In this document: piece after piece, positions 46,988 through 62,599 of the stretch | Position numbering within the stretch: position 1 is the first letter of the stretch | Layout: each line of letters begins with the position of its first letter | From: Pseudomonadales bacterium | Lineage (GTDB): Bacteria > Pseudomonadota > Gammaproteobacteria > Pseudomonadales > CAWVSB01 | Assembly (NCBI GenBank): GCA_046710535.1 | Contig: JBKEHH010000014.1 | Span: 13,927 to 77,926 of the forward strand | Direction: 5' to 3' | Length of the DNA stretch: 64,000 nucleotides | The notes under the pieces: generated by a model | Databases searched by the model: none | Seen by the model: the letters and a program-made list of their open reading frames with translations, nothing else | Told to the model about the DNA's origin: nothing | Program-made: the position numbers and the translations under genes

Positions 46988-48124
46988 CTATTTTTCCTCA
47001 AAAGTAACATTAGGCTCATTTTGATCAACATAAGCTTCTGTTAAATAGTCTCGGAAGCTTTCGTCATTTTGTAAAAAAGTTTTAAAAAATGCGACACCGT
47101 AAACGTTTTGTATGCGAAGAGACTCATCAACTGAAAACACATCAGGTGCACAAGTGTTTTCATAAATTGCTTGCAAAGGCGCTGCCGCCGGGACTAATGC
47201 AACCAGTTCATCAAAGCTGGGAAAAAATTCTAATGCGGCCTTTGCGATGTCGCAGGAGGTGGTGAAATGGTTATGACCAGCACCGACTATTTCAATATTA
47301 TAGACTGGCGATTTATCAACCTTAGCAAACGCTTCTCTGTTGGTTTCAATCGGCACACTAGTATCCAAGGTACCGCCAAGAAGTAGGGTAGGAATAGCTA
47401 GGCTTTTGTATTGTCCATCAGTGATCGGGGCGGCGGGGACAAAAAACCATCCTGCCACCGGCATACTGGCGGTTACGCGAGGATCTGCAGGTGCATCACC
47501 AAAACCGACAGCCATCCCCAGGGTCGTTACACCACCAAAAGAATGCCCTGTTACGCCAACGCTGTCTGGTAGGATCGTGCCTTCAAATCTGTCGCCGCTA
47601 GTACTGCTCATTATTAACATCTGATCGATAACAAATGACATATCTGCTGCACGATTTGCAACCTGCACAGCTAATTCATCGCCATTATCGCCATTTGCAT
47701 TACCGGCATGAGTTGGTGCAGCGACAATAAAACCCTGAGTAGCTAGCGCTTCCATCATCGAATAAGCCTGATTGCTCAAACCACCACTTCCGTGTGAAAA
47801 CACAATCAAATTACGGTCAGGTTTCTGTGACACCGGTAAAACTTCGCCGGCAATTTCAGATGTAATACCAATGCCATTTCCTAAATCATAAACCGCAGCC
47901 GGATCAGCCAAAAAGTCGATATCATCAACTGGATACCATATATCTACTTCCAGTTGTCTGTTGTCTCTCGTTGAATCAGTTATTGTAAATTTATCATAAC
48001 CAACACCAGAGGTGCCTTTTATTGACGGCAACTCTAACGGGAGAACCACTGATCTATCGCTTCCGCCGCCGTCACAAGCCGACAACAATGTAACTAGACC
48101 AGTTATTAAAACGAAACGCAGCAT
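46988..48124 (-). CDS. alpha/beta-hydrolase lipoprotein (PAF-acetylhydrolase/lipase-like)
   Basis: Lipobox LLSAC, nucleophile elbow VTGHSFGG, second motif FSHGSGG. Confidence 0.75.
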   Translation of the reverse strand: MLRFVLITGLVTLLSACDGGGSDRSVVLPLELPSIKGTSGVGYDKFTITDSTRDNRQLEVDIWYPVDDIDFLADPAAVYDLGNGIGITSEIAGEVLPVSQKPDRNLIVFSHGSGGLSNQAYSMMEALATQGFIVAAPTHAGNANGDNGDELAVQVANRAADMSFVIDQMLIMSSTSGDRFEGTILPDSVGVTGHSFGGVTTLGMAVGFGDAPADPRVTASMPVAGWFFVPAAPITDGQYKSLAIPTLLLGGTLDTSVPIETNREAFAKVDKSPVYNIEIVGAGHNHFTTSCDIAKAALEFFPSFDELVALVPAAAPLQAIYENTCAPDVFSVDESLRIQNVYGVAFFKTFLQNDESFRDYLTEAYVDQNEPNVTFEEK

Positions 48125-48226
48125 AGTAGATTCCTTTTTACTTATAATTTGGTTGGTTGTTTAAAGTACCGCACAGATACTAATGCAGAGTAGGGGTTCA
48201 ACCTAGAAATCACGTAATCTTCAATA

Positions 48227-48436
48227 TTAAATTAAATTCAGTATAAAAGCATTATTATGAACGAGTGTGAGTTCTCCAAATTTGAATTTATTATGCAAGT
48301 CTATATATGCAGCTGAGTCTCTATTTCAAATTATCAAGGCATAGTCATCTACAGAACTAGCGTCAGCATGAGTATAAATAGCACTCAACACCGGCATGAT
48401 ATCTCCTGGTGTAAGCTTTCTCTGGTCATTATACAT
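48227..48436 (-). pseudogene. decayed paralogue of ORF 46427..46693
   Basis: MYNDQRKLTPGDIMPVLSAIYTHADASSVDDYALII*NRDSAAYIDLHNKFKF... compares with MKTDERKLAPRDIMAVFNTIYTHGEAQDGGKFYQGLQAESSFDGYTLMISNRDSTLYLYFHNKFKV. There is an internal deletion and an in-frame TGA. Similarity extends into the 5-prime leader. Confidence 0.65.
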
Positions 48437-48802
48437 AATGCGTAATACGTATTTTTATTTTAGGCTGACTGAAGCGACTAAACGGACGTATTATTACGCC
48501 AAATAGATTAAAACAAAGGGGAATTAAAACTACTAGTTTGCCAAGAACTGAACTCTAGTTTTTATCATTGGATTTTAGAAATCGTGTTAAAGCAGAGCTG
48601 CAAATTACTTACTCAATACAGTTTTTACCACCAGAATATTCTTGATAAATCAGTGATGTCTTTTTTGGGCTACGCCAAATTTTTACTCAAAGCAGTAATA
48701 TCACATATTGTCTTTTACTAAAAGTACATAAGTACTAATAAATATTATCAATAGATAGGGATGCCGATCCAACCACACGCACCCTATCTTTTCTTGATAA
48801 AG

Positions 48803-49597
48803 CTATTTCTTTGCTAGTTTCACAGGACGACGCAATTGCATATTGTACAATCTCGCAACGTTGCAATGTACTATATCACCAAAAATTTGGCGGGCTTTCA
48901 TGACACCGCCACCTGTGCCATAGGCGTCAAAGGCATTGCCAAAATCAACATAATTCGTATAGCCCTGAACCATTTTAAAATCAAAATCCACATCACCGCC
49001 ACCAAAAGCAGGCCAGAGAGTAAGCATAGGGCCGGTAATACCTTTGTTAGTTAAATAGTCACCCCAAATAGTTAAGGCAGCACCTGCGTCGGCAGGTGTT
49101 TTACCTTCGGCAATTTTGCAATCAGCAAAGGTCATTACCGCAGTATCAGGTGTTTCTACCGGACCTGCAGTTATTACATTAACTGCGAAGCTAGCATGTT
49201 GTGGGCAGTTCATGACCTTAAAGAAATCCTTAGTAGCATCTTGGCCTTTTTTGGACATCGTTTTTTCTATAGCTGCTCCCATTGATTTGCCGTCAGGCCA
49301 AAATCCCATCCAGACCACATCCATGTTCACACCAGGATCATTGAACATCGGTGTGAGTGTTATGCCTAAATAGTCATGCTGTTTTGTTTTATCCATCCAA
49401 GAGTTCCACTTGGCGGTCGCCTTATTTACTCCGCTAATATTTTGACCGTCTTTGTAGTTACATAAAAATATCTCTGCGGGTGAAAATTTCGGACCTTGAT
49501 GATTATCTGCCATTGCTGGACCACTGACTAACAGTGCTGCAAAAAGTGAGATAGTGGTTGAAACTAATTTTAAGGTTTTTATTGGTTTTATTAACAT
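48803..49597 (-). CDS. secreted hypothetical protein with apparent internal two-domain duplication
   Basis: Signal peptide ...LLVSGPAMA. Two halves of about 100 aa share a C..W..(W/Y)..L.P.F...G.A...G...F..(V/I)..C pattern. Confidence 0.5.
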   Translation of the reverse strand: MLIKPIKTLKLVSTTISLFAALLVSGPAMADNHQGPKFSPAEIFLCNYKDGQNISGVNKATAKWNSWMDKTKQHDYLGITLTPMFNDPGVNMDVVWMGFWPDGKSMGAAIEKTMSKKGQDATKDFFKVMNCPQHASFAVNVITAGPVETPDTAVMTFADCKIAEGKTPADAGAALTIWGDYLTNKGITGPMLTLWPAFGGGDVDFDFKMVQGYTNYVDFGNAFDAYGTGGGVMKARQIFGDIVHCNVARLYNMQLRRPVKLAKK

Positions 49598-49875
49598 ATC
49601 AATCTCTCCTTGAAGTGAAGAGCAAGTGTATGGGTCGTACCAAAAGTAGCAATGTGCTGTTTATACTCTATTTGTCTAAAGATTATTTTTTTCAGAACTT
49701 GCTAACATTTCATTCCATTTTATATTACTAAATAATTTACTAGCTTGCTTATCTGAGCGAGAAATCAAGCAGCGCTAGACTACTAAATATATTTGTTGTG
49801 CCAAGGAACAAAGCCTATGGTTTGTAATTGAGTTTGTGAAATGGGCTGAGTAATTGTTGAAAGCGTTTTACTAAC

Positions 49876-50047
49876 ACCAGCTTTGCCAGCTAATTTCCTC
49901 ATTAGAGTTATATAGGGAATGTCTAAAGAAAGGCATAACAATTACGCCAGGGTCTTTATTTACATCGCAAGGTAATTACCTGAATTTTTACAGCTTAGCT
50001 ACGCACATCCATGGAATGCTCAGCGAACAGATGGACGACCAAGCTAA
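49876..50047 (+). pseudogene. 3-prime remnant of a MocR/GntR-aminotransferase-like (PLP fold-type I) gene
   Basis: ...LELYRECLKKGITITPGSLFTSQGNYLNF, then after a 1-nt shift, LQLSYAHPWNAQ... This is the typical C-terminal PG..F....LRLSYA.PW pattern. There is no upstream part. Confidence 0.4.
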
Positions 50048-50163
50048 GTATCTATACTAAAATCAATATTTAAGTTGGAAATTAGTAGATTTATTCTTGA
50101 TATCCAGTCATCTAATTATGAAATAGATTAATATCCAACTTATTTATACTCTTCCAAGATAAA

Positions 50164-50237
50164 TGTGATTTTAGTTGACCACTATAATAGTTAACGCAGG
50201 AATTTGGAGTTCACCCTGTAATAAAGTTTAAATGGCG
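50164..50237. repeat. candidate Tn7-like left-end repeats: TGTG terminus-like start followed by four abutting A/T-rich-AGTT units
   Basis: TGTGATTTTAGTTGACCAC / TATAATAGTTAACGCAGG / AATTTGGAGTTCACCC / TGTAATAAAGTTTAAATGGCG, with AGTT at 50173, 50189, 50208 and 50225. The units recall Tn7 TnsB-site cores (AATAAAGTCTTAAAC, AAAATAGTTGG; from memory). They end 24 bp from the tniQ stop. Confidence 0.4.
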
Positions 50238-50260
50238 TTACTAAGAGATTAACCAAAACC

Positions 50261-51820
50261 CTAGAATTTTGCGTAATGTCGAAATTCATAGGGGGAATTA
50301 AACGGGAATGACTTTAGTCTATGCTCAAGATAATCATTGAATTCTTCTGTGAGTGCTTTGTATTGATGCCAAGGAAATTGAATAGTATCTATGAATTCAT
50401 AAAAAAATAATGATTCAAGAGGGTAGTGTTTTTTATGGTACCTAGTGAATTTCTCGCATATTTTATGATCATTACGCCTAGTCTGTATCTGATAACCATC
50501 TAACGGATAAACCACGTCCTTTAAGAATACTCTTAATTTACCCTCTTTAATCTCACAACTGTAATATTGATAATTATGAGGCCTTTCTTTATAAGGTGCA
50601 TAAAGCGTATCTGTTGTGAGGATTGATTCTTTGTTTACTTTTTCCCCAATATTATTCACTAATCTTTCTACTCGCTCGAATATATCGATAAAGCAGATTT
50701 CTAAGCTTCGTTGATAGAACCATTCAATAAAACGCTCTTCATAATTTAGATATCCTTCAATTATTAAAGGATGAAAGAATTGGAAAGGGTGATAAAAATT
50801 CCTATTATTTTCACTGTTTATCAAAAAAGGATAGTCTCTTATGGTTATAAAATTATGGATTTTTAGTGAATAGTTGAAACTTTCTACGTAGAAAAAATAC
50901 ACACTCAAAGCGGTACAAAATTTACATGATTTGGGTGCTTTTAAAAGATCTTTTAGACGTATAGATTTTAATGTGAATACTTTTGATCGATGCCCCTTAG
51001 GACATTGTTTTGCAATCCATCGTAAAATTCTGGTTAATGTTAGATATTTGACTCTCGCCATTTTAGCGATGAGTTTAGGTGAATAATTATTGATGAAAAA
51101 ATCTTCTCCTTCATATATCGGATTGATTTTTTCATATTTATTAAAAATGATAACCCGTACAGGTGAGATGGGAATTTTTAGAGATTGTAAGAGTTTATGA
51201 GTTACTTTTTTGTCTTTGATAGTGAGAATCGTTGGGTAATACCTGTCTTTTGGCGATATTTCATACCAGCCATCACCAAAAGATGGAATTGATCTCTGCT
51301 GAGAGAGATTTTCTTCTAAATAGTAGTAGTTTTTAGTCAACCAGTCTCTAAAAAGGTTGTCTAGTTTTTTTATAATTTTAAAATCGACATCTGTAAGAAC
51401 TAATTCAGGCTCTGAAGTAATATTTTGGGCACTATAGTCAATTGTCCCATCTTTTTTCGTGTTATCATCAAGACAAACTACAGAGGGAATTTCAGCGGTT
51501 AATTTACAGTGATGTATAGGGCAATGGGTTATCCAAGGTATATTAAAGATATCTGTATGGAAAATTATCTGTGCACATTTAGGACAAAATTTAAATTCTC
51601 CTATTAGTTGCGTAGCAATTTGATTGGAACTTTCAAACCCTTGATATGCGAGCACTCTCTGTTTGAACCCTGTAATCTCAGGAAATATGGTTTTCAAATA
51701 TTTATCAATAAATATTTGTGATAGTCCCCGATTTGCTACCATAAATCTCGTTATGCAGGAGAGCTCGCTTTCGTGAGGTCTCTTAAAATAGTCACCTGAG
51801 TTAAAATGTAGTCCCATCAC
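50261..51820 (-). CDS. tniQ: TniQ/TnsD-family target-selection protein
   Basis: TniQ-like N-terminus (PHESELSCITRFMVANRG) with a Cys/His cluster (FCPKC...WITHCPIHHC). 519 aa, comparable with Tn7 TnsD. 4-nt overlap with tnsC. Confidence 0.8.
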   Translation of the reverse strand: MMGLHFNSGDYFKRPHESELSCITRFMVANRGLSQIFIDKYLKTIFPEITGFKQRVLAYQGFESSNQIATQLIGEFKFCPKCAQIIFHTDIFNIPWITHCPIHHCKLTAEIPSVVCLDDNTKKDGTIDYSAQNITSEPELVLTDVDFKIIKKLDNLFRDWLTKNYYYLEENLSQQRSIPSFGDGWYEISPKDRYYPTILTIKDKKVTHKLLQSLKIPISPVRVIIFNKYEKINPIYEGEDFFINNYSPKLIAKMARVKYLTLTRILRWIAKQCPKGHRSKVFTLKSIRLKDLLKAPKSCKFCTALSVYFFYVESFNYSLKIHNFITIRDYPFLINSENNRNFYHPFQFFHPLIIEGYLNYEERFIEWFYQRSLEICFIDIFERVERLVNNIGEKVNKESILTTDTLYAPYKERPHNYQYYSCEIKEGKLRVFLKDVVYPLDGYQIQTRRNDHKICEKFTRYHKKHYPLESLFFYEFIDTIQFPWHQYKALTEEFNDYLEHRLKSFPFNSPYEFRHYAKF

Positions 51821-52764
51821 ACAGCCTTTATATTTTCTGGCACGAAGCCAGTGGCATCTAATGCACGCTCTACCATTTCTTCAGAGAGATGATCAACTCC
51901 GTAATGAGGCAAAAAATCAGTTAATAAAACATTCACCATTGATATAAAGTACTGCATACCCCAAGAATCAATCTGATATGCTTTTTGATAACGGGTGAAA
52001 GTACCCCATAATAAAGATGCCGCATCACTTAAGCGCCAATTATCATTAAACGCCTGTGGTAAAAAGAACTCTGTATAAACTGGACCGTCTTCTTTGGGAA
52101 AACGCAGTGAGTCGTATTGAGCAAGACACGCTTTGACATCAGCTTTATTTCGAAGGCCATAGAAGTTATAGATATTTATGAAAAATCGACCATGGATATG
52201 ACGATATTGTTTCTTTCTGATGACATGTAATAAAGACTCCGCCTCATCGCTATTCACCACAAGGAATACATGTAATTGGATTTTGTATTTCTCACGTAAA
52301 ATGTCATAGATTTGGCAAAAGACTCCACATTGCTCTGGTGATAATCGCTGTGCTTCATCGGCAAAGATAATAAACTGACGGCTCTTTTTCTCAGCCAAAC
52401 TATCGAGAATATAGCAGAGGAGATTATTCAGCATAGGTTCTACTCGCATGGTATTGGTAACAGGTAAATCCACGCTAACCAATAATGTTCTATAAAGAGC
52501 ATTTACTGTTTTTCGGTCAAGGGTAGGAACGGTCAGAAAGTGAGAAGGGATGATTTCGCCACGACGATTTTTCAGATTATCTCTAATGTAATCGAGCGCT
52601 GTAGTTTTTCCATGGCGCGCCTGCCCTTGTATCACTGCACCAGTGATGCCGTTCCAGAGCAGCTGTGTTAACTGGTCTTCAAGTAACTGAATAGCAGGTG
52701 TTCGTATGATGAGATCATAAGGATGGAACACGGGGTGATCGTAGTAATCAATGTTTTGTTGCAT
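51817..52764 (-). CDS. tnsC: TnsC/TniB-family AAA+ ATPase
   Basis: Walker A GQARHGKTT and Walker B FIIFADEAQRL. 315 aa, which is TniB-sized. Confidence 0.85.
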   Translation of the reverse strand: MQQNIDYYDHPVFHPYDLIIRTPAIQLLEDQLTQLLWNGITGAVIQGQARHGKTTALDYIRDNLKNRRGEIIPSHFLTVPTLDRKTVNALYRTLLVSVDLPVTNTMRVEPMLNNLLCYILDSLAEKKSRQFIIFADEAQRLSPEQCGVFCQIYDILREKYKIQLHVFLVVNSDEAESLLHVIRKKQYRHIHGRFFINIYNFYGLRNKADVKACLAQYDSLRFPKEDGPVYTEFFLPQAFNDNWRLSDAASLLWGTFTRYQKAYQIDSWGMQYFISMVNVLLTDFLPHYGVDHLSEEMVERALDATGFVPENIKAV

Positions 52765-54646
52765 GATTCGATACCATGAGTTTAGTGGATAGGGAAGTAC
52801 TCCAAGGTTTGATCTTCAGTGTAGTTTGGTCAACAGCTATCGCATCATATGAATGATCTTGAGATGGCTTTAATATAAGAGGTTCATCACCAGAATCCGT
52901 AAATTCATCATATATTTTAAGAATTTTCAGATTATCTTCAGAGTTACCTTTATGTTCCAATAAGTACCTAAAATAGCCTGCCAGTAAATCGGTAGCATGA
53001 AATGCATGAGCTTTCACTAGATTGTGAATATGTTTACGGGTTGCCAGGCTGTGTTTAAATCTACGCCACGATCTTGAAGCTAGTAATGTCCCTAATGCGG
53101 CACCGCCTGTCGTAAAAACACTTAATTCCCGAATGTCGCGTATATCGTATTCGACAGTTACGTAACTATCGTCTCTTAGAGCTGTATATAATTCTTGATG
53201 ACTTGAGGTATAGCGGACATAGAAGAAATTTACGTGGGGCTGTCTATTTTCTTTTTTTAGCCACTTAATCGGTAAATTTACTCGCCGCGTAAATGGTGAC
53301 CAGCGCTCTCTAAGGATCTCTGGAGTGTATCTCACATAATGATTCTGATGATGGTCAAGAAACAACGATAGAGGTGTTGTTGCGCCAAGGTGTGATTTCG
53401 GAGTCACATTATCTTGAGTCAATATAATACTGAGCGCCTCTTCTAATGTTCGCAGGGTAATCAACGGCACTTTTTTATTGTTTTTTCGTGATTCTTTTTT
53501 TGGGTCTTTAGGGTGTGATCCTGTAGTCGAGTTAGCACGATGACTAAAATTTATGTTGATATAGTTAAAGGCAGCTTCAATCCAGTTCCGTGTTTGGGGA
53601 ACAGCTGGGGGGCCAAAACTTAGAGTGGCTGACCGTTGTATACATATGACATCACGCACGCTATGGGAAAAATGGGATAAAGCATTATCCAGCTGTAAGG
53701 TATTAAAATTGATGTCTGTAATTGCTGGGTGACCTGATGGAAACATTGCTCCTGGTTCATATTGAAACCCCGGTGTTGTTAACTGTAATGGTTGCCAAGG
53801 TTTTATACATTTATCGAACAACATGAGAATGTCTTGTTGGTTAGGAGTTTTTGTATAGGCTATTGCAAAACCTAATTTGCAATTAGTATCGACGTCCATT
53901 GCCAATAAGAGGTTGATCCGTTTGATGCGAAGCGGAATCAACTCCTCATTGAGTTGAAGGTGGATACTAGTATGTAAATCCATGGTTTGTTCGTCAATTT
54001 GAATAGTTCTTAAAGCCCGCTGTGCTGGAAGATCGGAAATATACTTATGTGCTTTTTGATCGTGTATCCTCTTTAACTCATTACTGCGCTTGTGGAGATA
54101 TTGTCGTACTGATTCATAAGCCACACTTTGCGTGTTGTAGGGATAACAGTCGGTTGGATGATTAGCCTCTCTAAGCACATTCTTAAACTCACCATGAAAT
54201 ACCTTGGGCGTGAGATTTTGACTATAGGGCTTATCACTTTGGTATGCCTTAATCATGCTATCCAGACGACTTTCCATATATGGAACATGATTCAATAGCC
54301 ACTGAAAGCTATAATTCTGCCCACTAGTCATATCCATTGGTTGACGGCGTTCGCCTTTATTTAAGCGTTTATCAGGAATCAGCCCCTGAGTTAAAGGCGG
54401 AGGCTCATTCTCATCGCCACTCAAGCACCGATTGAGAATGTGGCTAACAAAAGAAGTGGAAACCTGATGAACTGTTGCTGTGTGCTTGATTGAGACGCCT
54501 TTTAGAACCGATAGAGCGATCTGCTGATTACGAATAAACCGTTTGCGTTTGGATTTATGTAAATTCGACACATCCACATAAGGCCATTCAGCAAGCTGCC
54601 GTAACCGAGGCTCTCTATCTAGGCGAACTGACCAATTGATCTGCAT
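52748..54646 (-). CDS. tnsB: TnsB-type DDE (Mu/retroviral-integrase-like) transposase
   Basis: N-terminal HTH region. DDE candidates are IQIDEQT, LQLDNALSH and WIEAAFNY. A C-terminal Mu-transposase-like beta domain is present. 632 aa. Confidence 0.9.
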   Translation of the reverse strand: MQINWSVRLDREPRLRQLAEWPYVDVSNLHKSKRKRFIRNQQIALSVLKGVSIKHTATVHQVSTSFVSHILNRCLSGDENEPPPLTQGLIPDKRLNKGERRQPMDMTSGQNYSFQWLLNHVPYMESRLDSMIKAYQSDKPYSQNLTPKVFHGEFKNVLREANHPTDCYPYNTQSVAYESVRQYLHKRSNELKRIHDQKAHKYISDLPAQRALRTIQIDEQTMDLHTSIHLQLNEELIPLRIKRINLLLAMDVDTNCKLGFAIAYTKTPNQQDILMLFDKCIKPWQPLQLTTPGFQYEPGAMFPSGHPAITDINFNTLQLDNALSHFSHSVRDVICIQRSATLSFGPPAVPQTRNWIEAAFNYININFSHRANSTTGSHPKDPKKESRKNNKKVPLITLRTLEEALSIILTQDNVTPKSHLGATTPLSLFLDHHQNHYVRYTPEILRERWSPFTRRVNLPIKWLKKENRQPHVNFFYVRYTSSHQELYTALRDDSYVTVEYDIRDIRELSVFTTGGAALGTLLASRSWRRFKHSLATRKHIHNLVKAHAFHATDLLAGYFRYLLEHKGNSEDNLKILKIYDEFTDSGDEPLILKPSQDHSYDAIAVDQTTLKIKPWSTSLSTKLMVSNHATKH

Positions 54647-55326: not shown

Positions 55327-55394
55327 GGCTTTCCCCCAGTAAAATGAAGAGACAAACGCTATCAGAAACAGGGATGCTTTAATACGCGGAGCTT

Positions 55395-55445
55395 TGCACC
55401 AATTATATATAGTTTGGTGCAGGTATAAAAACGCCTATTTTTATA
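55395..55445. promoter_or_regulatory. two adjacent perfect palindromes in the tnsA / recombinase divergent region
   Basis: TGCACCAA-N11-TTGGTGCA at 55395-55421 and TATAAAAA-CGCCTA-TTTTTATA at 55424-55445. A third TGCACCA lies at 55508-55514, just before the recombinase ATG. Confidence 0.5.
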
Positions 55446-55528
55446 GACAAATACGCTTAAAAGGCGGTTATGTCACCCACTTAAGCGGTTTATAATACCT
55501 CTCAATATGCACCAGAGTACAAGGGCAA

Positions 55529-56263
55529 ATGGTACAAACACATTACACAGACCATGAATTTTCGCCAACGCGCAGGCGCAACCTCTTTGCACCTATCGAA
55601 CGTCCTGCCGTCACGTTCCCGATACAGTCTGTCGTTATCGATTGGGATCGCCTGCAAGCCAAACGTGCCATCGTGCTAGAAACCGCCGACACCATGCCAG
55701 CTTACCTGCTGAAGCCCGAAATCAATCTCCTACTTGATGCGGAAAAAGATCCAATTTATCGCCTCATCTATGACTTAATGTGGACAACAGGAGCACGGGT
55801 ATCTGAAGTCCTCGCGTTAACCCCTGAACGCTTTACCAATGACGGCTACGATTACGGTGTTATTTTAAAAACACTCAAACAAGGGTCAGGACGACCAACT
55901 AAAAAGTCCTTACTTCGATCGAAAAAGCGCTATGTGCCCATCGTTGATCGGGGCGTACAAGATAGAATTCAAAGCTATTTATACACAGGACATTTTAGAA
56001 AGACTGAACACATATTTACCATGAAACGACAAACCGTTTGGCGACATATTCAGCGATTAGTGGAGAGAGTAGGGGGCGCACCATTTTCGATATCTACAAA
56101 GACCTTTAGGCATTCTTTCGCTGTTCATCTCATATTACATGGCAGGCCTTTAAAGATTGTCAGCAAACTCCTAGGACACGCATCGATACAAACGACAGAA
56201 ATTTACACCAACGTCCTAACGGTAGACGCTGGGCATTTTTTAGAAGGGGTGGATTTTCATTAG
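55529..56263 (+). CDS. short tyrosine recombinase (catalytic domain only; FimB/XerC-like)
   Basis: TGARVSEVLAL (Arg I), FRHSFAVHL (Arg II; the first His of HxxR is replaced by Lys: KTFRH), LLGHASIQTTEIYTNV (His/Tyr nucleophile). 244 aa with no recognisable N-terminal core-binding domain. Confidence 0.85.
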   Translation: MVQTHYTDHEFSPTRRRNLFAPIERPAVTFPIQSVVIDWDRLQAKRAIVLETADTMPAYLLKPEINLLLDAEKDPIYRLIYDLMWTTGARVSEVLALTPERFTNDGYDYGVILKTLKQGSGRPTKKSLLRSKKRYVPIVDRGVQDRIQSYLYTGHFRKTEHIFTMKRQTVWRHIQRLVERVGGAPFSISTKTFRHSFAVHLILHGRPLKIVSKLLGHASIQTTEIYTNVLTVDAGHFLEGVDFH

Positions 56264-56807
56264 AGAAAGGATATTAATAGCTCGGTGTATGTTGAAGACT
56301 GCCCGCTTAAAGGATTCATGATTACGTTTAATGCAGTTGCCTAGTAACTATGTTAAGTGTCTAGTAAAGTCTGGGAAGTTCAGGGAGTCCGAGTTCAAGA
56401 GATAGGTAGCCCTTTTTTACATTTCTTTTCTTCTTCCACGCGCCAGAGACTTTTTTCAAATTCTCGGTTTTTCTTTGGTATGGGGTCATTGGTGTTGCCT
56501 GTGGCAAATACCATTGTGCTCTTCTCGAAGCTGGCGGACTCATTTGTCCATGATAAATTTTCTAACTCCCAATGCTTTCTCTGTTTTGCGAATAGAAACA
56601 TCTTAGATTCACAACTAGACGTGCTGCCTGTAATCTAAATTCTGGGTTTTATGTCGGTCTCACTCGTCTGTTCATTGATCCGTAAGTAGTTATGAGATGA
56701 TAATGTCACCTTTTAATCAGGTGGTCAGCTTCACTATTACACTATCTACTACTTAACAGCCTATAAATGGATTATTCAGTTCGCATTTAGTGCTGTCAAA
56801 AGGCGAG

Positions 56808-57275
56808 TCATTTAGTTTGAATGGTTATTGTGGCGCTAACATTCCCAGGTTGCTTTCCTTTATTTAATGTTAATGACGTTATCTTGGTGCTTTTTGAGGA
56901 AGTATTTAATGCCCCGATAAGCGCTATGGTTTTACTATAAAGCGCATCATTGGTAGAGATAAGTACGCCTCCATCTGTTTTCGGTTGTATTCGATCCAAT
57001 GTAATTTCGTATTCGGCGGCAATTTTCGCGAGATCACTAATGGTAACTTCGTCAGTTCCAGTTCGAGTTCCATGATTGCTTTCTATCAGAGTATTTTTAT
57101 TTATCTGCATCCATGATAACAGCGACTTTTTTTCCGTATATCCATTTATAGCTTTTAGCTTCAGGGTATTGATAGAAGGCAAAATGACAAGCGAAAGAAT
57201 GATAGCTACCAAGGCAATAGCGTGACGCGGGTGTGATTTAGCATTGGTTTTAATTTGTTCTACGAGTTCATTCAT
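56808..57275 (-). CDS. gspM: T2SS GspM-like protein
   Basis: 155 aa with a single N-terminal TM (HAIALVAIILSLVILP) and a periplasmic ferredoxin-like-sized domain. It sits directly after the gspL-like gene. Confidence 0.55.
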   Translation of the reverse strand: MNELVEQIKTNAKSHPRHAIALVAIILSLVILPSINTLKLKAINGYTEKKSLLSWMQINKNTLIESNHGTRTGTDEVTISDLAKIAAEYEITLDRIQPKTDGGVLISTNDALYSKTIALIGALNTSSKSTKITSLTLNKGKQPGNVSATITIQTK

Positions 57276-57290
57276 ATTTTACTTGTGAGT

Positions 57291-58505
57291 CTATAAAGTG
57301 ACTTGTATTTTTGCACTGATAGTAGATTTTTGCTGATCTGCATTTAGTAATTTGGCTTTTGCACCATTTTCTTCAATCAATTTCACATATCGTTGTATTG
57401 CATCATGACTGGTGGCCTTAATATCTATAGTAAGACCGTTACTAGGCTGAAATCTCAACGATTGTATGTCAACTACATCCGCTGGTTTTAAAGCGCTTAC
57501 CAGCAACTGCTGAAGATTATTATTTGTTGCTGAACTAGTGTTATTGATATGTTGTTTAAGTTGTCTTTTAAGACTAATTATTCGTTTGTCTTGAGGATAT
57601 ATTTCCTTGTATAAGGCGACAGCTTGATCTTGGTATTCTTTTTCTTGTGACGAGTAGTAAAGCCACGACACGGTATTAATAACAACAACCATCAGAAGTA
57701 CAGCCGCTGCACTAATAGCAAATAACGGTTTTTTAATGAGATCGTATAACTCGTGTTTGATGTCTTTACGCTTATTGGGTAAAACGTCCCAGTATTCCAG
57801 TTCCGCTGAATGGTCTACTAACCATTGTTCGATCGGTACTGCTATTGAGGAATAGTCATAGCGGGCGTGTACCATATTACTGTCTATAGTCGGCTCACCG
57901 AAATGATGGTGAACTATGGAGTGGTCATCAGTACGTTCTCTTATAATACTTTCTAAAAATACAGTTAAATTTTTATAATCACAGGCGTAGGTGTTTGTTT
58001 GATCAAGGTTAATCAATACCATTGATTCGTCGCTGACAATTGTAATTGTCCTATTTGTTGATGAAATTAAGTGAGTATCTAAGATGGTTTTGCTGATGGG
58101 CACATGTTGTTTAGCTAAGAATGCGAGCCATTGGCTGGATAGCTGTTTATGTATGGCAACAGCTTTCCATTGATTTTCATCAAATGGGTGGCAGGTGATA
58201 GTGAATGCGTCAATATCTTCAAGAGCGTATTCTTCAAGATGATATTTGATGGTGTTGGAAATATGCTGGGATTTGTTATCTGTGTTAGGTAAATCGATGC
58301 AATCACAAATGGTGTGCATCGCTGGCCATACCAAAATACACTCATCCTCATCCTCATCCTCATCGTCGTTGATGACGGATATTAGCTGCGCGCCCGCTAT
58401 GAGTATTGCATCAACGCCTATTTCTTTCTGGTAGGCCTTAATACCTCCCCAAGTAGGGGTGCTGTTTATTGCCTGTTGATCAATAAATAGAAAATACCTA
58501 GTCAT
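57291..58505 (-). CDS. gspL: T2SS GspL-like protein
   Basis: 404 aa: about 250-aa cytoplasmic domain, one TM (LFAISAAAVLLMVVVINTVSWLYY) and a periplasmic domain. 8-nt overlap with gspE. Confidence 0.6.
   Translation of the reverse strand: MTRYFLFIDQQAINSTPTWGGIKAYQKEIGVDAILIAGAQLISVINDDEDEDEDECILVWPAMHTICDCIDLPNTDNKSQHISNTIKYHLEEYALEDIDAFTITCHPFDENQWKAVAIHKQLSSQWLAFLAKQHVPISKTILDTHLISSTNRTITIVSDESMVLINLDQTNTYACDYKNLTVFLESIIRERTDDHSIVHHHFGEPTIDSNMVHARYDYSSIAVPIEQWLVDHSAELEYWDVLPNKRKDIKHELYDLIKKPLFAISAAAVLLMVVVINTVSWLYYSSQEKEYQDQAVALYKEIYPQDKRIISLKRQLKQHINNTSSATNNNLQQLLVSALKPADVVDIQSLRFQPSNGLTIDIKATSHDAIQRYVKLIEENGAKAKLLNADQQKSTISAKIQVTL
58341..58364. repeat. hexanucleotide repeat (CTCATC)4 inside gspL-like gene, encoding DEDEDEDE
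   Basis: Read directly. Confidence 0.95.
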
Positions 58506-60000
58506 TGGGTTGCTCGACAGCGAGGCGAAGTACTTCTTCGATATTGGTTTCTAGATTTGATACTTTTTCTAGCCCTGAAGTTACCAGCGATCGATGGTCG
58601 TTGGGCAGTTGCTGCGCAATGACTTGCTCGCTTTCAGCTTTCGTAATGAGGTGTTTGAGTTTGTCGTCAATAATTACGAGTTCATATACAGCACTGCGGC
58701 CATAAAACCCTGTGTTGTTACACTCTGCGCATCCCTCTGGATGGGCTAGTTCTTGTGGTGGTTTAAGTTTATAGGTATTGAAGATATCGATTTCGTGCAC
58801 TGTGATTGGACGAATAATTTTGCAGTTATCACAAAGCTTTCGCACCAGTCTCTGAGCCATTACAGCGCTTAGACTGGAAGCTAGCAAATAGGATTCGACC
58901 CCCATATTGGTTAAGCGAGTAATCGCCCCAACAGCAGTATTTGTATGAAGCGTTGATAGGACGAGGTGGCCAGTGAGGCTAGCCTGTACGCCTATAGATG
59001 CCGTCTCGTTGTCTCGTATTTCCCCTATCAATATAACGTCTGGGTCTTGTCTAAGCATTGATCTTAAGCCGCTGGCAAATGTCATGCCAGATTTTTCATT
59101 GACTTGTGTTTGAGAGATGCCTTCTATATCGTATTCGATTGGGTCCTCAATAGTCAGGATATTACGTCGTAGCATGTCGATCGATTGGAGTGCTGCATAT
59201 AGTGTTGTGGTTTTGCCCGAACCTGTCGGGCCTGTCACTAGAATAATACCGTGCGGTTGAGCAATAAGCTTTTTGATGCTGCCCAGTAGTTGAGCATCCA
59301 TGCCTAAATTCGTTAGTTCGTAATTATTAGCGCCGTGAGCAAGTAAACGCATAACGATACGCTCACTTCTTTTTGTCGGCAGTGAAGATACTCGTACATC
59401 CATATCCGTGCCTAGTAATTGCATGGAGAAGCGGCCGTCTTGAGGTTTTCTCTTTTCAGCAATATCCATTTTCGACATCACTTTAATGCGCGATAATAAA
59501 AGATGGCCAATACTTCGATGCACCGATGCTGCTGACTGCAATACCCCGTCTACACGATAGCGAATCGTTAACTTGTCTTTACTGGTATCAATATGAATGT
59601 CTGACGCACGGCGTTTTAATGCTTCAACAAGCATAGCATTGACGAGTCTGATAACTGGAGCTGCATCCTCGCTATCTAGTAAATCAACTTTGTTGCCAAT
59701 ATCTAGCAGCGCATCACTTAACCCTTCGTTACCTGATAATGTATTTGCATCGGCAAATTCCTTACTTTTAGTATCTTCGTAAGTTTCGTAAGTTAGCTTT
59801 GCTATGTCTTCTTGACTCAGCAATTCTAGCTTTATTGACTTGTCTAAAAAACGCCTAACTTCCGCTAGTGCAGCTATTGGCGTTTTGTCTGAATATGACA
59901 CACACGGTTGTTGGTCTAACGTGTTGACGACGATATCAAAGCGTTTAGCCCACTGAATAGGGATACTATTCATCTTCTGGGGTTTCGCTGGGCTGTTCAT
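58498..60000 (-). CDS. gspE: T2SS ATPase GspE
   Basis: DLLDSEDAAPVIRLVNAMLVEALKRRASDIHI, Walker A GPTGSGKTT, Asp/His boxes and the tetracysteine motif CDNC...CAECNNTGFYGR. Confidence 0.95.
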   Translation of the reverse strand: MNSPAKPQKMNSIPIQWAKRFDIVVNTLDQQPCVSYSDKTPIAALAEVRRFLDKSIKLELLSQEDIAKLTYETYEDTKSKEFADANTLSGNEGLSDALLDIGNKVDLLDSEDAAPVIRLVNAMLVEALKRRASDIHIDTSKDKLTIRYRVDGVLQSAASVHRSIGHLLLSRIKVMSKMDIAEKRKPQDGRFSMQLLGTDMDVRVSSLPTKRSERIVMRLLAHGANNYELTNLGMDAQLLGSIKKLIAQPHGIILVTGPTGSGKTTTLYAALQSIDMLRRNILTIEDPIEYDIEGISQTQVNEKSGMTFASGLRSMLRQDPDVILIGEIRDNETASIGVQASLTGHLVLSTLHTNTAVGAITRLTNMGVESYLLASSLSAVMAQRLVRKLCDNCKIIRPITVHEIDIFNTYKLKPPQELAHPEGCAECNNTGFYGRSAVYELVIIDDKLKHLITKAESEQVIAQQLPNDHRSLVTSGLEKVSNLETNIEEVLRLAVEQPND

Positions 60001-61936
60001 TAACTTCTGAGGGCTGTTTGTTGGCAGCCCTATTTTGCTCTATAAATTCTTCTAACACTGAACCTGAACCAGGCAGTAAGAAATTATCAAGATCTTCATT
60101 CATGTCGTACTGATTTAGCTGCATTTGTTTGTAACGCTTTTTCGTCACTAAGTTGTTATCACTTTCTGTGTACAATATTTTTGGGTGTAAAAATACCATC
60201 AGGTTTTTCTTGACGATTTTATCGGAGGTGCTTTTAAATAGGCGCCCCAAATATGGAATATCACCGAGCAAGGGGATTTTACTTTCCGTCTGAGTGATCT
60301 CATCGCGAATTAATCCGCCTAATACTAAAATCGCATCATCATCAATTAACACATGAGTATTGATAGCACGCTTGTTGGTGACGATATCAGCTGTGGTAGC
60401 AGAGGTATCCGAGATGCTTTCTACAGTCTGATTGACTTCGAGATTAATTGAACCGTCATTATTAATACGCGGTTTAACTTTAAGCGTGACACCAATATCT
60501 TGGCGCTGAATAGTTTGAAATGGATTGTCGGTTGAAGATGATGCATTGGTAGATTGTCCGGTAATAAACGGTACGTTTTCTCCGACCAATATTTCAGCCT
60601 CTTCATTGTCTAGCACAACAATGGTTGGTGTAGATAACACGTTCGCAGCCGTATCGTTTTCGAGTGCGCGTATCATGGCGCGTAACTGGTCGTCTTTAAA
60701 CAACCCCAATGTTAGTCCTGACGCTATGGTAGGAGGGGATATGATATTGATATTCTTGGTGATAGTGTTTTGCCCTGCAAATACACCGTCGCTAGGAACA
60801 TCGGTTTGCCATTGTATTCCTAAATCTTTTAGTCGTTCTTCGTTAACCTCGACAATCAGAGCTTCCACAAGTACTTGCGCTCTGCGAATATCCAATTGAT
60901 CGATAATAGCGCGAAGCGACTTGATAATGTCGGGTGAGCCGGTGATAACCAGTGAGTTGGTTTGTTCATTGATTTCTATGGTAGTTTCGATGCGCTCACC
61001 AGGAGAGCTAACATTGCTTCGTAGCCCTGTGGCAACAGCTCGTAATGTCGGCATAAGTTTTGCGGCTTCAACATAATTGAGAAAAATAACTTGCGCATTT
61101 CCCTGGGTGTCTTGTGGGTTATCTAGCCTTCCTATGAGTATGCGCAACTGTCTTTTTTCAGACGAATTTCCAGCGATCAATATGCTATTAGTTCTTGGCT
61201 CCGCCACAATGGTGATTTTGCTATTCGCCGATGATTTTTGCTTAGCAGTTATTTTATTCAGTATGTCGACAATCTTGCCGGCATCTGCATAGTTAATAGC
61301 AATAATCTCTGCGTCAACATCACTGGTAATGTCGAGCTTGCTAATGATCGTAAGCAAATGTTCAATTTGTTGGTAGCGGCCAGAAATTATCAACGAATTC
61401 GTGCTGGGTTCAGCAATCAGCGAGCTGCCTTTGGCCGCGAGAGGTTTTACCAGATTGATGGTCTCGCTGGCATCAATATGCTTTAGACGAACTATTTTGG
61501 TGATGTTGTTTTCACTGGCTTGTGAAGATGACTTCTCATCAATCAGGGGGCTAGTGGGTTCAGTACCATTTGGAATTATTTTGATGACATCATCAAGCTC
61601 AATGGCTGAATAGCCGTGAACTTCTAATGTTGATAAGAAAACGTCATAAGCTTCTTTCTTGCTCATCGGATCACCCGCCAAAATAGTGACCTGACCGCTA
61701 ACCGACGGATGAATGACGATATTTTTGGTTACCAGAGTTGATGCCCAACGAATAAGTTCGCGAATATCGCCTTGCTCCATAGAAATCGAGATATTTCTTT
61801 CTTGGGATTGTTCAGCTGTAATGGCGTCAGTGGGTATGACTACTAGCACTGTGGTCAAAAAAATCATGACAAAGCTGTTGAGCCTATGGTTAACCCTTGA
61901 CGCAAACGCTTTTTTAATTGATGGGGTAAACAGCAT
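59966..61936 (-). CDS. gspD: T2SS secretin GspD
   Basis: N0-N3 domains (DIRELIRWASTLVTKNIVIHPSVSGQVTI...) and a secretin core (VPFITGQS...IPLLGDIPYLGRLFKS...NLMVFLHPKIL). Confidence 0.95.
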   Translation of the reverse strand: MLFTPSIKKAFASRVNHRLNSFVMIFLTTVLVVIPTDAITAEQSQERNISISMEQGDIRELIRWASTLVTKNIVIHPSVSGQVTILAGDPMSKKEAYDVFLSTLEVHGYSAIELDDVIKIIPNGTEPTSPLIDEKSSSQASENNITKIVRLKHIDASETINLVKPLAAKGSSLIAEPSTNSLIISGRYQQIEHLLTIISKLDITSDVDAEIIAINYADAGKIVDILNKITAKQKSSANSKITIVAEPRTNSILIAGNSSEKRQLRILIGRLDNPQDTQGNAQVIFLNYVEAAKLMPTLRAVATGLRSNVSSPGERIETTIEINEQTNSLVITGSPDIIKSLRAIIDQLDIRRAQVLVEALIVEVNEERLKDLGIQWQTDVPSDGVFAGQNTITKNINIISPPTIASGLTLGLFKDDQLRAMIRALENDTAANVLSTPTIVVLDNEEAEILVGENVPFITGQSTNASSSTDNPFQTIQRQDIGVTLKVKPRINNDGSINLEVNQTVESISDTSATTADIVTNKRAINTHVLIDDDAILVLGGLIRDEITQTESKIPLLGDIPYLGRLFKSTSDKIVKKNLMVFLHPKILYTESDNNLVTKKRYKQMQLNQYDMNEDLDNFLLPGSGSVLEEFIEQNRAANKQPSEVNEQPSETPEDE

Positions 61937-61951
61937 AAAATGAAAAATCCT

Positions 61952-62599
61952 TTATTGATCTCTTTTGGCGCGAAGTTTTCCCAGTCGATCACTAAGTTGG
62001 GAATAATTCTCTGAACTTCGCCTTACCAGCGGCTGCTGTTGCAGAGATGTATTTCGACCTAGGTTTTCGGCAGGCGTTGATACGGTTGGTTGATTGGTTG
62101 GCGTGGTGTAATGTGCATTATTATTTTTGTTAGACGCTAGCGCTTTTGCAGTAGGAAGCAACAGTGTTTCAAAGGCATCATCGCGTTTGATAGTGACTCG
62201 GTCGCTAAAGACCTCATGTAATGTCACGCCATCGGCGATGGTATCTTGTGTTAAAAACAGTTTTGCAGTGTTACGGGCGATAGCTATCAGCGCAGAGGAG
62301 TTTTCAGAGTTCTTTTTTACAAAGGTCGCAACTAAGCGTAGATCAAGATTTGTGGTCGGCAGGGCTTTAGGTGCCTTTATTGTTTTAACTGATTCGGCTT
62401 TTCCAAAAGGATGCAGGTCTGCAATCGAACTCAGTTTTAAGGCAGTACTATTTTGAGCGCTTGTTGTAAGTTCTGTTAATGCCAAATCGTATGCTACCGG
62501 GGTAGATAGCGCAGGCGCCAAATTGGCTATTAGAGTATAGCCAATCATGACGGTGGCGAGGATTATCGCACTTGCTGTTGTGGTCGTCGAAGATGACAT
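61952..62599 (-). CDS. gspC: T2SS GspC-like protein without PDZ domain
   Basis: N-terminal TM, an HR-like region (LHPFGKA...LDLRLVATFV...SSALIAI...LHEVFSDRVTIKRDDAFETLLLP) and a polar/basic C-terminal tail instead of PDZ. Confidence 0.55.
   Translation of the reverse strand: MSSSTTTTASAIILATVMIGYTLIANLAPALSTPVAYDLALTELTTSAQNSTALKLSSIADLHPFGKAESVKTIKAPKALPTTNLDLRLVATFVKKNSENSSALIAIARNTAKLFLTQDTIADGVTLHEVFSDRVTIKRDDAFETLLLPTAKALASNKNNNAHYTTPTNQPTVSTPAENLGRNTSLQQQPLVRRSSENYSQLSDRLGKLRAKRDQ

Follow-up and report, generated by a model that had tools for sequence, protein, structure and literature searches.

The window analysed here is a 64,000-nucleotide (nt) stretch of contig JBKEHH010000014.1 from a Pseudomonadales bacterium. 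A gene for a 244-amino-acid tyrosine recombinase, here called int, diverges in it from four overlapping or abutting minus-strand open reading frames (ORFs) that resemble the Tn7-like core genes tniQ, tnsC, tnsB and tnsA and face away from int. The initial annotation of this DNA had described the recombinase as divergent from tnsA, and both ORFs were confirmed (Table 1). It had also reported two perfect 8-nt palindromes and a third TGCACCA (55508) in the shared spacer of 202 base pairs (bp), and all three are present. For perfect 8-nt inverted repeats, first-order Markov resampling gave an expectation of 0.08 per 202 bp, and two were observed (55395–55402/55414–55421 and 55424–55431/55438–55445; P(≥2) = 0.014). 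We examined Int, its upstream sites and related loci, and propose that int and these sites may act as a recombination module of a Tn7-like transposon family.

Int is an Xer-like tyrosine recombinase without a core-binding domain

PF00589 was the sole Pfam domain placed on Int, at residues 62–229 (E = 7e-20; 72 bits against a cut-off of 27.1). Residues 1–61 had no Pfam match, which agrees with the earlier description of a protein without a recognisable N-terminal core-binding domain. The catalytic residues listed there were also recovered, as R90 (GARVSE), K191-x-x-R194-H195 (KTFRH), H217 and Y226; Arg-I, Arg-II, the histidine and the tyrosine are kept and a lysine stands for the first histidine of HxxR. 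Domain score and catalytic residues together place Int in the tyrosine recombinase superfamily. In the family alignment R194, H195, H217 and Y226 were invariant and R90 nearly so, and both an N-terminal segment (FPIQSVxIDWDRL...) and the extreme C-terminus (GHFLEGVDFH) were highly conserved. Position 191 is histidine in 23 of 25 aligned homologues, and lysine only in the window protein and its nearest relative (80% identical). Between these two proteins the ratio of nonsynonymous to synonymous substitution rates (dN/dS) was 0.066, indicating that the lysine form is a maintained protein. Type IB topoisomerases carry a lysine at the equivalent position, and K191 therefore need not abolish catalysis.

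We found 296 homologues of Int at E ≤ 1e-5, the best 120 of which are about 65–80% identical to it, almost all 240–250 amino acids long and spread over many gammaproteobacterial genera; a genome scan using one genome per species returned 288 matching stretches. The best partial NCBIfam matches were to XerD, XerC and IntI models, and every cut-off was missed by far. XerD scored 92.5 bits against 329.6 and XerC 73.8 against 335, with both models aligning at model positions ~97–277 only and their first ~95 residues finding no counterpart in Int. The integrase_gron model scored 62 bits against a cut-off of 265, over the C-terminal part only, and no cassette array was found. The best solved relatives (XerA-type 4a8e, XerD and IntI4) likewise aligned only with the C-terminal domain. 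The suggestion that Int is FimB/FimE-like stood for size alone, the best partial matches being XerD, XerA, XerC and IntI; no FimB/FimE model appeared among the NCBIfam matches at E ≤ 0.01, the presence of such models in the library being unchecked. These comparisons show Int to be a tyrosine recombinase of Xer-like type that is intact and under strong constraint and lacks a core-binding domain.

Two palindromic sites lie upstream of int

To compare upstream elements, we aligned the 330 bp 5′ of int across 65 loci. Site 1, with the consensus TTTGCACCAtTTACnnnGTATtTTGGTGCA (27 bp between outer bases), was located at −123 to −145 in 36 related loci. Conservation of the palindromes, which the initial annotation had named as a check on its reading, was thus borne out for the first of them. 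It failed for the second, whose 8-6-8 layout had been taken for a recombinase core site: an inverted repeat of at least 6 nt occurs at the TATAAAAA/TTTTTATA position in just 3 of 33 distinct loci. The right side of site 1 starts with an invariant TA(G/T)TT-half-site and the left keeps the half-site motif alone; in L039 and L072 not even this left motif is retained. Site 1 was single-copy at each locus within ±10 kb, no further copy being found there by pattern or weight matrix. Half-site matches elsewhere in the window (57357, 10428 and 43552) were rejected as further copies because they were at chance level.

The third TGCACCA proved to be one half of site 2, a 29-bp imperfect palindrome that overlaps the int start codon. 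Its layout, TGCACCA-N15-TGGTaCA, recurs at −21 in many loci, and its right half is the int start region, where ATGGTACAA encodes Met-Val-Gln; this overlap explains why MVQ is conserved and the residues after it are not. In L029, L034 and L052 the site 2 half-site is GGTGCA, and int apparently starts at its GTG, as judged by inspection. In the Marinobacter clade, site 1 reads TTGACn-N13-CGTCAA at the same position and site 2 reads TTGACA-N15-TGTCAA, with the int start ATGTCAAAA (ATGTCAA) inside it. The two sites therefore differ in spacer length (13 nt in site 1 and 15 nt in site 2), and both switch half-site along with the protein clade. This pattern is best explained by one protein, most simply Int, that would bind both sites.

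Promoter-like elements overlap this arrangement. In the window copy, the predicted −10 box of a tnsA-directed promoter falls within the site 1 spacer. A TATAAT, TATAAC or TATACT box reading toward int is found at equal offset in most loci, between the two sites; in the window it lies in a conserved non-coding block (55454–55495) that is nearly identical in the nearest relative, L087. This box was not called by the promoter scan, and its −35 is poor.

As a separate observation, a T5 run 17–22 nt past site 1 is common among the loci (window 55433–55445). In some of them a hairpin precedes it, GC-rich in L007 and AT-rich in L017 and in the window, giving a terminator-like structure between the divergent genes.

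The two sites could also be imagined to flank a 113-bp invertible promoter segment through which Int flips int and tnsA expression in the manner of FimB/FimE, much as the initial annotation had suggested in proposing an inversion switch acting on tnsA. Two quasi-palindromic sites 113 bp apart do bracket a TATAAT box, the recombinase is small and the genes are divergent. The order of site 1, TATAAT, site 2 and ATG is nevertheless constant in all ~65 loci with colinear homology, so that the segment between the sites has the same orientation throughout. The structure is also unchanged in loci with nothing conserved leftward, the spacers are unequal, and the listed NCBIfam matches include no FimB/FimE model. 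We consider such a switch highly improbable.

Natural mosaics break at the centre of site 1

The identity of Int does not track that of the transposase. Mean identity across 27 loci was 0.68 for Int versus 0.36 for TnsB, and pairwise identities correlated less between Int and TnsB (Spearman 0.46) than between TnsB and TnsC (0.83). In Marinobacter, Int proteins are 93–98% identical where the TnsB proteins are 32–35% identical. This uncoupling of Int from TnsB indicates that int modules and tns modules have recombined.

Pairs of loci locate the exchange. From −129 to +10640 at least, L043 and L045 share 94% identity, and they are unrelated leftward, with TnsB proteins 32% identical; over the 100 bp on either side of −129, their ungapped identity is 0.31 on the left and 0.93 on the right. 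The corresponding values for L072 and L043 are 0.20 and 0.94, and homology between L039 and L040 breaks at −128. The centre of site 1 falls at −129, and left of it the relatives have a different tns module or non-transposon DNA joined to the int side. By comparative inference, at least three independent comparisons thus place the breaks of natural mosaics at the site 1 centre. Breaks that recur independently at the midpoint of a palindromic recombinase site suggest a trace left by site-specific strand exchange.

The int stop codon forms a second sharp boundary, with 1509 of 1861 locus pairs losing homology at +730 to +739; L022 and L023, for example, are ~89% identical across int to +730 and unrelated after it. 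This boundary needs no special site, as homologous exchange between conserved flanking genes would give it. A conserved small stem-loop (TGGACnnCTTTCGaCCCAAAGCgGACA) was also noted within a few bases of the int stop in eight loci from different genera (L007, L008, L011, L018, L022, L030, L041 and L049).

Int is an accessory module of a Tn7-like family

We then related int to the transposition genes at 68 loci with a close Int homologue. At 35 of them a divergent tnsA-tnsB-tnsC-tniQ operon is present in the same geometry, typically with the tnsA start 60–75 bp from site 1; seven more have a truncated tnsA at that place. L020 has the tns operon in opposite orientation, ending beside int, and the remaining loci have no tns gene within 10 kb. 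Conversely, the tns module of L089, whose TnsA and TnsB are 50% and 46% identical to those of the window, is accompanied by neither int nor site 1. The initial annotation had asked whether the recombinase and tnsA always co-occur, and had counted their independent occurrence as a refutation; they are often linked, but the link is not obligatory in either direction. Since int occurs without tns genes and the L089 tns genes occur without int, Int appears to be an exchangeable accessory. In L089 a gene with an Xre-like helix-turn-helix (HTH) and a ParS_C domain, of antitoxin type, takes the place of int upstream of tnsA, and such a gene recurs beside the tns modules of L089, L006, L088 and L090.

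The operon in the window contains TnsB, TnsA, TnsC and a TniQ/TnsD-type selector together, as Tn7-like operons do. The TnsB-like protein alone had neither a Pfam nor an NCBIfam match, but a profile of 18 homologues matched solved TnsB chains (E = 2e-8 to 7e-8), with D218, D320 and E357 invariant. All 18 TnsA homologues share E65, and at least 90% of them have D90, E103 and K105; these are the acidic and lysine positions of TnsA, and the protein is apparently catalytically intact. The tniQ gene is the last of the tnsA-B-C-Q operon in 28–32 related loci, and its products are 20–34% identical among loci.

Ends of the Tn7 type were found in relatives. The right end consists of three direct ~20-bp repeats (TTTAGtACTTTgtGTGG) and a ...GTCGTCCA tip, and right-end repeats lie beyond int in 17–18 loci. 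In L021, whose TnsB is the second closest to that of the window among the genome-scan loci, a left end at −5374, just past tniQ, and a right end at +7570 enclose tniQ...tnsA, site 1 and int. These ends flank the whole, so int, the cargo and a second recombinase (both described below) are inside the element. Several loci without tns genes retain the right end, and L044 also has left-end-like sites, which marks them as tns-less derivatives. The 5-mers at the left and right tips of L021 are unequal (CCGAA and CACAG), with no matching 5-bp target duplication; the two ends may therefore stem from separate insertion events, as expected if halves were exchanged.

The family thus shows the arrangement of a transposon-borne resolution module, a recombinase adjoining its own multi-part site inside a transposon, with the sites 5′ of int and the ends in relatives. 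From these sequence comparisons, the module would sit inside the element, between tnsA and the tnsA-proximal end, and Int is an accessory module of a Tn7-like family, neither a core gene nor an unrelated older integrase. Of the earlier proposals, the integrase of an older island found no support, and membership in the Tn7-like element was upheld by the 35 linked loci, the ends flanking int in relatives and the res-like layout. The accompanying idea of a TnsF-type target selector was not upheld (see Comparison with known systems).

A candidate recombination and autoregulation module

We propose, at about an even chance, that int and its two imperfect palindromes form an accessory res/IRS-like recombination and autoregulation module of this Tn7-like family that allows module exchange. 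By analogy with res/TnpR and IRS/TnpI, whose layout it shares, Int dimers would bind site 1 and site 2, with strand exchange at site 1 as the crossover site and site 2 serving as an accessory and autoregulatory site. Occupied sites would silence int and, in the window copy, also the promoter of tnsA, with its −10 in the spacer of site 1. Recombination could occur between copies of site 1 carried by different elements or replicons, and rare cointegrates or tandem copies could be resolved; as a by-product, transposition modules and cargo would be shuffled.

Several points weigh against this proposal. The AlphaFold2 model of Int (predicted local distance difference test, pLDDT, of 45) is too poor to use. 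The window protein has K191 in place of the HxxR histidine. Site 1 lacks a partner in cis within ±10 kb, and its left half is much less conserved than its right, a pattern that an attL-type hybrid would fit equally well. Other loci do not conserve the tnsA −10 that lies inside site 1, which makes it specific to the window copy. With an intact TnsA, cut-and-paste transposition should rarely yield cointegrates, and a resolvase is not obviously required. Finally, we found no Tn7 ends in the window: searches for inverted repeats, 8-mer co-clustering, flank alignment against shuffles, a repeat-cluster finder and the end motifs of relatives gave nothing above chance. Terminal TnsB-repeat arrays with a 5-bp duplication are thus missing for the window copy only, whose membership in the family rests on its relatives.

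Tn7-like elements attract study because they choose their targets exactly and serve as tools for genome engineering. Their cargo is also one of the major reservoirs of defence systems, and its turnover is not understood. A compact recombinase that regulates itself and has a 27-bp site at the joint of transposition genes and cargo would offer a concrete mechanism for module exchange. If active, Int together with its site would also form a very compact recombination system that might find practical use.

Defence genes, a second recombinase and dif in related loci

The wider and more novel system is visible in the relatives of the window copy. Past int, they carry 4–9 kb of variable defence genes, including Gabija-like, CBASS E1/E2/JAB, YobI, type I restriction–modification (RM), NACHT and UvrD-nuclease genes. 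A second small tyrosine recombinase gene, unrelated to int and here called int2 (~256 amino acids, PF00589, 21% identical to Int), is convergent with int and closes this defence bay. It lies +4.6 to +10.4 kb from int in L007, L008, L011, L018, L021, L022, L036, L039, L042, L043 and others, and likewise in L045, L052, L053 and L058. The int2 gene has its own conserved palindrome upstream (CAATAATCCGT...ACGGATTATTG). The int stop codon was also considered as a half-site or attachment site of Int2, and this was rejected, as the resemblance there was only weak.

The Tn7-type right end follows 0.4–1.2 kb past int2, and a canonical chromosomal dif (GCGCATAATGTATATTATGTTAAAT), present in 17 of the fetched loci, lies 34–38 bp beyond the right-end tip in either dif orientation (L001, L007, L011, L013, L036, L042, L044, L052, L053 and L055; 53 bp in L039). 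This fixed spacing suggests dif as the homing target of the transposon family. The 36-bp gap from the Tn7 right tip to dif is filled in L044 by a palindrome of the int2 type (+3670 to +3705), and in L019 (+7530 to +7580) int2 and its palindrome lie 10 bp from dif with no Tn7 end between. Such arrangements give the dif flank the look of a layered hot spot.

The recurrence of the stretch from int to int2 raises a different explanation, that Int is the integrase of a separate cassette (int, defence cargo and second recombinase) that inserts in a site-specific way directly upstream of tnsA in these transposons and sometimes elsewhere. Site 1 would then be an attL-type hybrid, its right half from the cassette and its left half from the target. 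The near-invariance of the right half, contiguous with int, fits this, as does a left half reduced to a short motif, or to nothing in L039 and L072. The unit from int to int2 and the site designated site B also recurs with and without tns genes, abuts dif in L019 with no Tn7 end between, and is absent as a whole from the close tns module of L089. The attR expected of such a cassette, a second site 1-like sequence, was however not found within 10 kb in any locus by pattern or weight matrix; the far boundary of the unit bears a different palindrome, that of int2; and the homology of L043 and L045 extends past site B. We judge a separate cassette rather unlikely.

Int and its site might instead be resident DNA to which Tn7-like elements home, with TniQ recognising the Int-bound site much as the 'res hunters' of the Tn5053 family do with resolvase-bound res. 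Int does track the host genus and not TnsB, about a third of the loci have int without trace of tns genes, and the junctions fall at a fixed point beside int. The tnsA-proximal Tn7 end is nevertheless found past both int and int2 and not in the interval from tnsA to int, where just 60–75 bp separate the tnsA start from site 1 and no TnsB-type repeats occur in the window, the one locus examined for them. Occupied loci retain a complete site 1, and between L043 and L045 the left halves of the site differ even though the remainder of the supposed target is 94% identical. The fixed distance in relatives is that to dif, 34–38 bp. Resident DNA of this kind is quite improbable.

Returning to a module inside the transposon, the flank can be joined to it in a broader and more tentative picture that we hold possible but less than even in probability. 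An undescribed Tn7-like family would home 34–38 bp from the chromosomal dif and carry, in the interval from tnsA to the right end, a defence bay bracketed by two different minimal tyrosine recombinases with their own palindromic sites; crossover at site 1 would swap transposition modules against cargo modules between elements that meet at dif. If this is true, int and its cargo would stay with a host lineage through successive gains and losses of transposition machinery. A right end 34–38 bp from dif, with a second recombinase closing the defence bay, would represent a new class of target and a new type of island organisation.

The window copy

The window has no cargo downstream of int and no second recombinase, and no dif was found within its 64 kb. 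Past the int stop, homology to L087 continues for a short conserved stretch and ends there (Table 1). About 90 bp past the stop lies a scar of an insertion sequence (IS), a solo right inverted repeat of the IS3 family. Its exact 26-mer directly follows an ORF with IS3-type OrfB motifs, seen by inspection, in three metagenome contigs, whose flanks diverge after ...GTTCA. The stretch 56338–56382 had been considered as a Tn7 right end and was rejected when the metagenome scan identified the IS3-family repeat; a 13-nt inverted match (10984/56748) was rejected as an end pair because it lies inside coding sequence. In the simplest reading, an IS-associated deletion removed the right part of the window element. 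The window copy is probably a stranded one, with no identifiable ends, cargo or second recombinase, an IS3 scar, and a gene still under purifying selection.

Table 1. Features of the int locus in the window (positions are those of the window; a dot marks features without strand)
Feature	Position	Strand	Description
tniQ-like target selector, 519 amino acids	50261–51820	−	Weak Pfam TniQ match (E = 0.003)
tnsC-like AAA+ regulator, 315 amino acids	51817–52764	−	Pfam AAA_22 (E = 7e-9); operon position conserved
tnsB-like DDE transposase, 632 amino acids	52748–54646	−	Profile of homologues against solved TnsB chains
tnsA-like endonuclease, 235 amino acids	54619–55326	−	Weak Pfam Tn7_TnsA-like_N and NCBIfam TnsA_like matches
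Site 1	55395–55421	.	27-bp palindrome TGCACCAATTATATATAGTTTGGTGCA; TGCACCAA-N11-TTGGTGCA, perfect 8-nt arms; proposed Int core/crossover site
tnsA-directed promoter-like site	55402–55429	−	Predicted; −35 TTTATA (55429–55424), 16 nt, −10 TATAAT (55407–55402); 10/12 matches in consensus scan
Second palindrome	55424–55445	.	TATAAAAA-N6-TTTTTATA; perfect in the window, lineage-specific; its T-run alone widely shared
Conserved non-coding block	55454–55495	+	Likely int −10 box TATAAT (55490–55495)
Site 2	55508–55536	.	29-bp imperfect palindrome TGCACCA-N15-TGGTACA over the int ribosome-binding site and ATG (55529); proposed accessory/autoregulatory Int site
int	55529–56263	+	244-amino-acid Xer-like tyrosine recombinase; ATG start; catalytic domain and short conserved N-terminal segment
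Post-stop conserved stretch	56264–56291	+	~28 nt shared with nearest relative L087; homology ends there
IS3-family solo right inverted repeat (IS scar)	56353–56382	+	Exact 26-mer recurs in three metagenome contigs

It is at this copy that a purely regulatory role has to be weighed, in which Int of the window or of the K191 lineage would only be a DNA-binding repressor of tnsA and of itself, without strand exchange. The lysine in place of the HxxR histidine is restricted to the window and its nearest relative, the sites overlap both the tnsA-directed promoter-like element and the int start codon, the window offers neither a partner site nor cargo, and strong purifying selection on int persists. 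Set against this are the retention of all other catalytic residues, Y226 included, the general precedent of the type IB topoisomerases for a lysine at this position, and family breakpoints that fall at the site centre. We regard a repressor without recombinase activity as unlikely.

No close GspM homologue was in the database for an empty-site comparison, and neither an Rfam family nor a tRNA was found around the element. To its right, a type II secretion cluster occupies 56808–62599 and continues past the window end; in the window and L086 its genes are split, with gspC-D-E-L-M on one strand and gspF-G and the next gene divergent beyond the window end. On the other side, G+C content falls to 0.31–0.40 at 48000–53000, compared with ~0.42–0.45 around it; this dip covers tniQ, tnsC and two upstream ORFs and includes an unannotated 264-amino-acid protein (48803–49597).

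Comparison with known systems

The proposed module most resembles two resolution systems of the Tn3 family. TnpI of Tn4430 and Tn5401 (~284–306 amino acids) is encoded beside its own IRS, an inverted-repeat core with further repeats toward the gene; the IRS overlaps the promoter region, and TnpI also regulates expression. Here, too, a tyrosine recombinase gene adjoins what is proposed to be its own multi-part site, which overlaps the promoter region. TnpI, however, serves a replicative Tn3-family transposon that needs resolution, whereas Int accompanies a Tn7-like element with an apparently intact TnsA; TnpI is also longer, and the second site here is an inverted repeat over the start codon, not a direct repeat. 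In the res/TnpR system of Tn3 and gamma-delta, tnpA and tnpR are divergent, the crossover point is the middle of the site closest to the transposase gene, TnpR represses both genes, and crossovers at res generate mosaic transposons. Divergent transposase-side and recombinase genes with several imperfect palindromes of different spacers in a shared control region are common to both systems. TnpR is nevertheless a serine recombinase acting on three subsites, whereas a tyrosine recombinase and two sites are seen here.

FimB and FimE share with Int the small size and the lack of a separate core-binding domain, but the best partial matches of Int are to Xer proteins and IntI, and there is no invertible segment, a single orientation being found in ~65 loci. 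Unlike the cassette array of IntI, the downstream cargo in Int relatives consists of whole defence operons.

Within Tn7-like elements, tyrosine and serine resolvases termed 'tnsR' have been linked to core genes in clades 2 and 3 (Benler et al. 2021, PMC8649781). The likeness is a tyrosine recombinase recurrently linked to a Tn7-like core and read as transposition machinery, not cargo; the difference is that TnsR belongs mainly to branches without tnsA, which transpose replicatively, while here tnsA is present and looks active. In the parts of PMC8649781 consulted we found no description of sites, layout or module exchange for TnsR. The earlier statement that a divergent tnsA-int pair is undescribed therefore needs narrowing, since tyrosine 'tnsR' genes are known at survey level (PMC8649781), but it holds in that none of the compared systems matches.

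Tn6022 elements offer two further comparisons. They may encode a full-length protein resembling XerC, accompanied by a dif-like site of hybrid type (PMC11014353); like Int, this protein is an Xer-type recombinase with its own site in a Tn7-like element, and it has been proposed to diversify elements via element/plasmid recombination. That protein, however, works with host XerD on a half-dif site downstream of its gene (PMC11014353), whereas Int is N-terminally minimal, has a symmetric non-dif palindrome upstream, and shows nothing suggesting a host partner. TnsF of Tn6022-like elements (Faure et al. 2023, PMC10293859) is also a tyrosine-recombinase-derived protein encoded in a Tn7-like element. 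It has ~480–500 amino acids, N-terminal zinc fingers and tandem core-binding-like domains, lacks the catalytic pocket, and shares an operon with tniQ, with comM as target (PMC10293859). Int, at 244 amino acids, has a full catalytic set; its gene diverges from tnsA and is separated by ~3.7 kb from tniQ, which lies on the opposite strand. With a TniQ present as well, a TnsF-type selector is unsupported.

Full-text searching of a limited collection of papers returned no description of this layout or of a dif-homing Tn7-like element. On present sequence comparisons, none of TnsR, the Tn6022 XerC-like protein and TnsF matches the combination found here, in which a minimal recombinase that looks active is transcribed away from an intact tnsA and two palindromes make up a shared control and putative crossover region.

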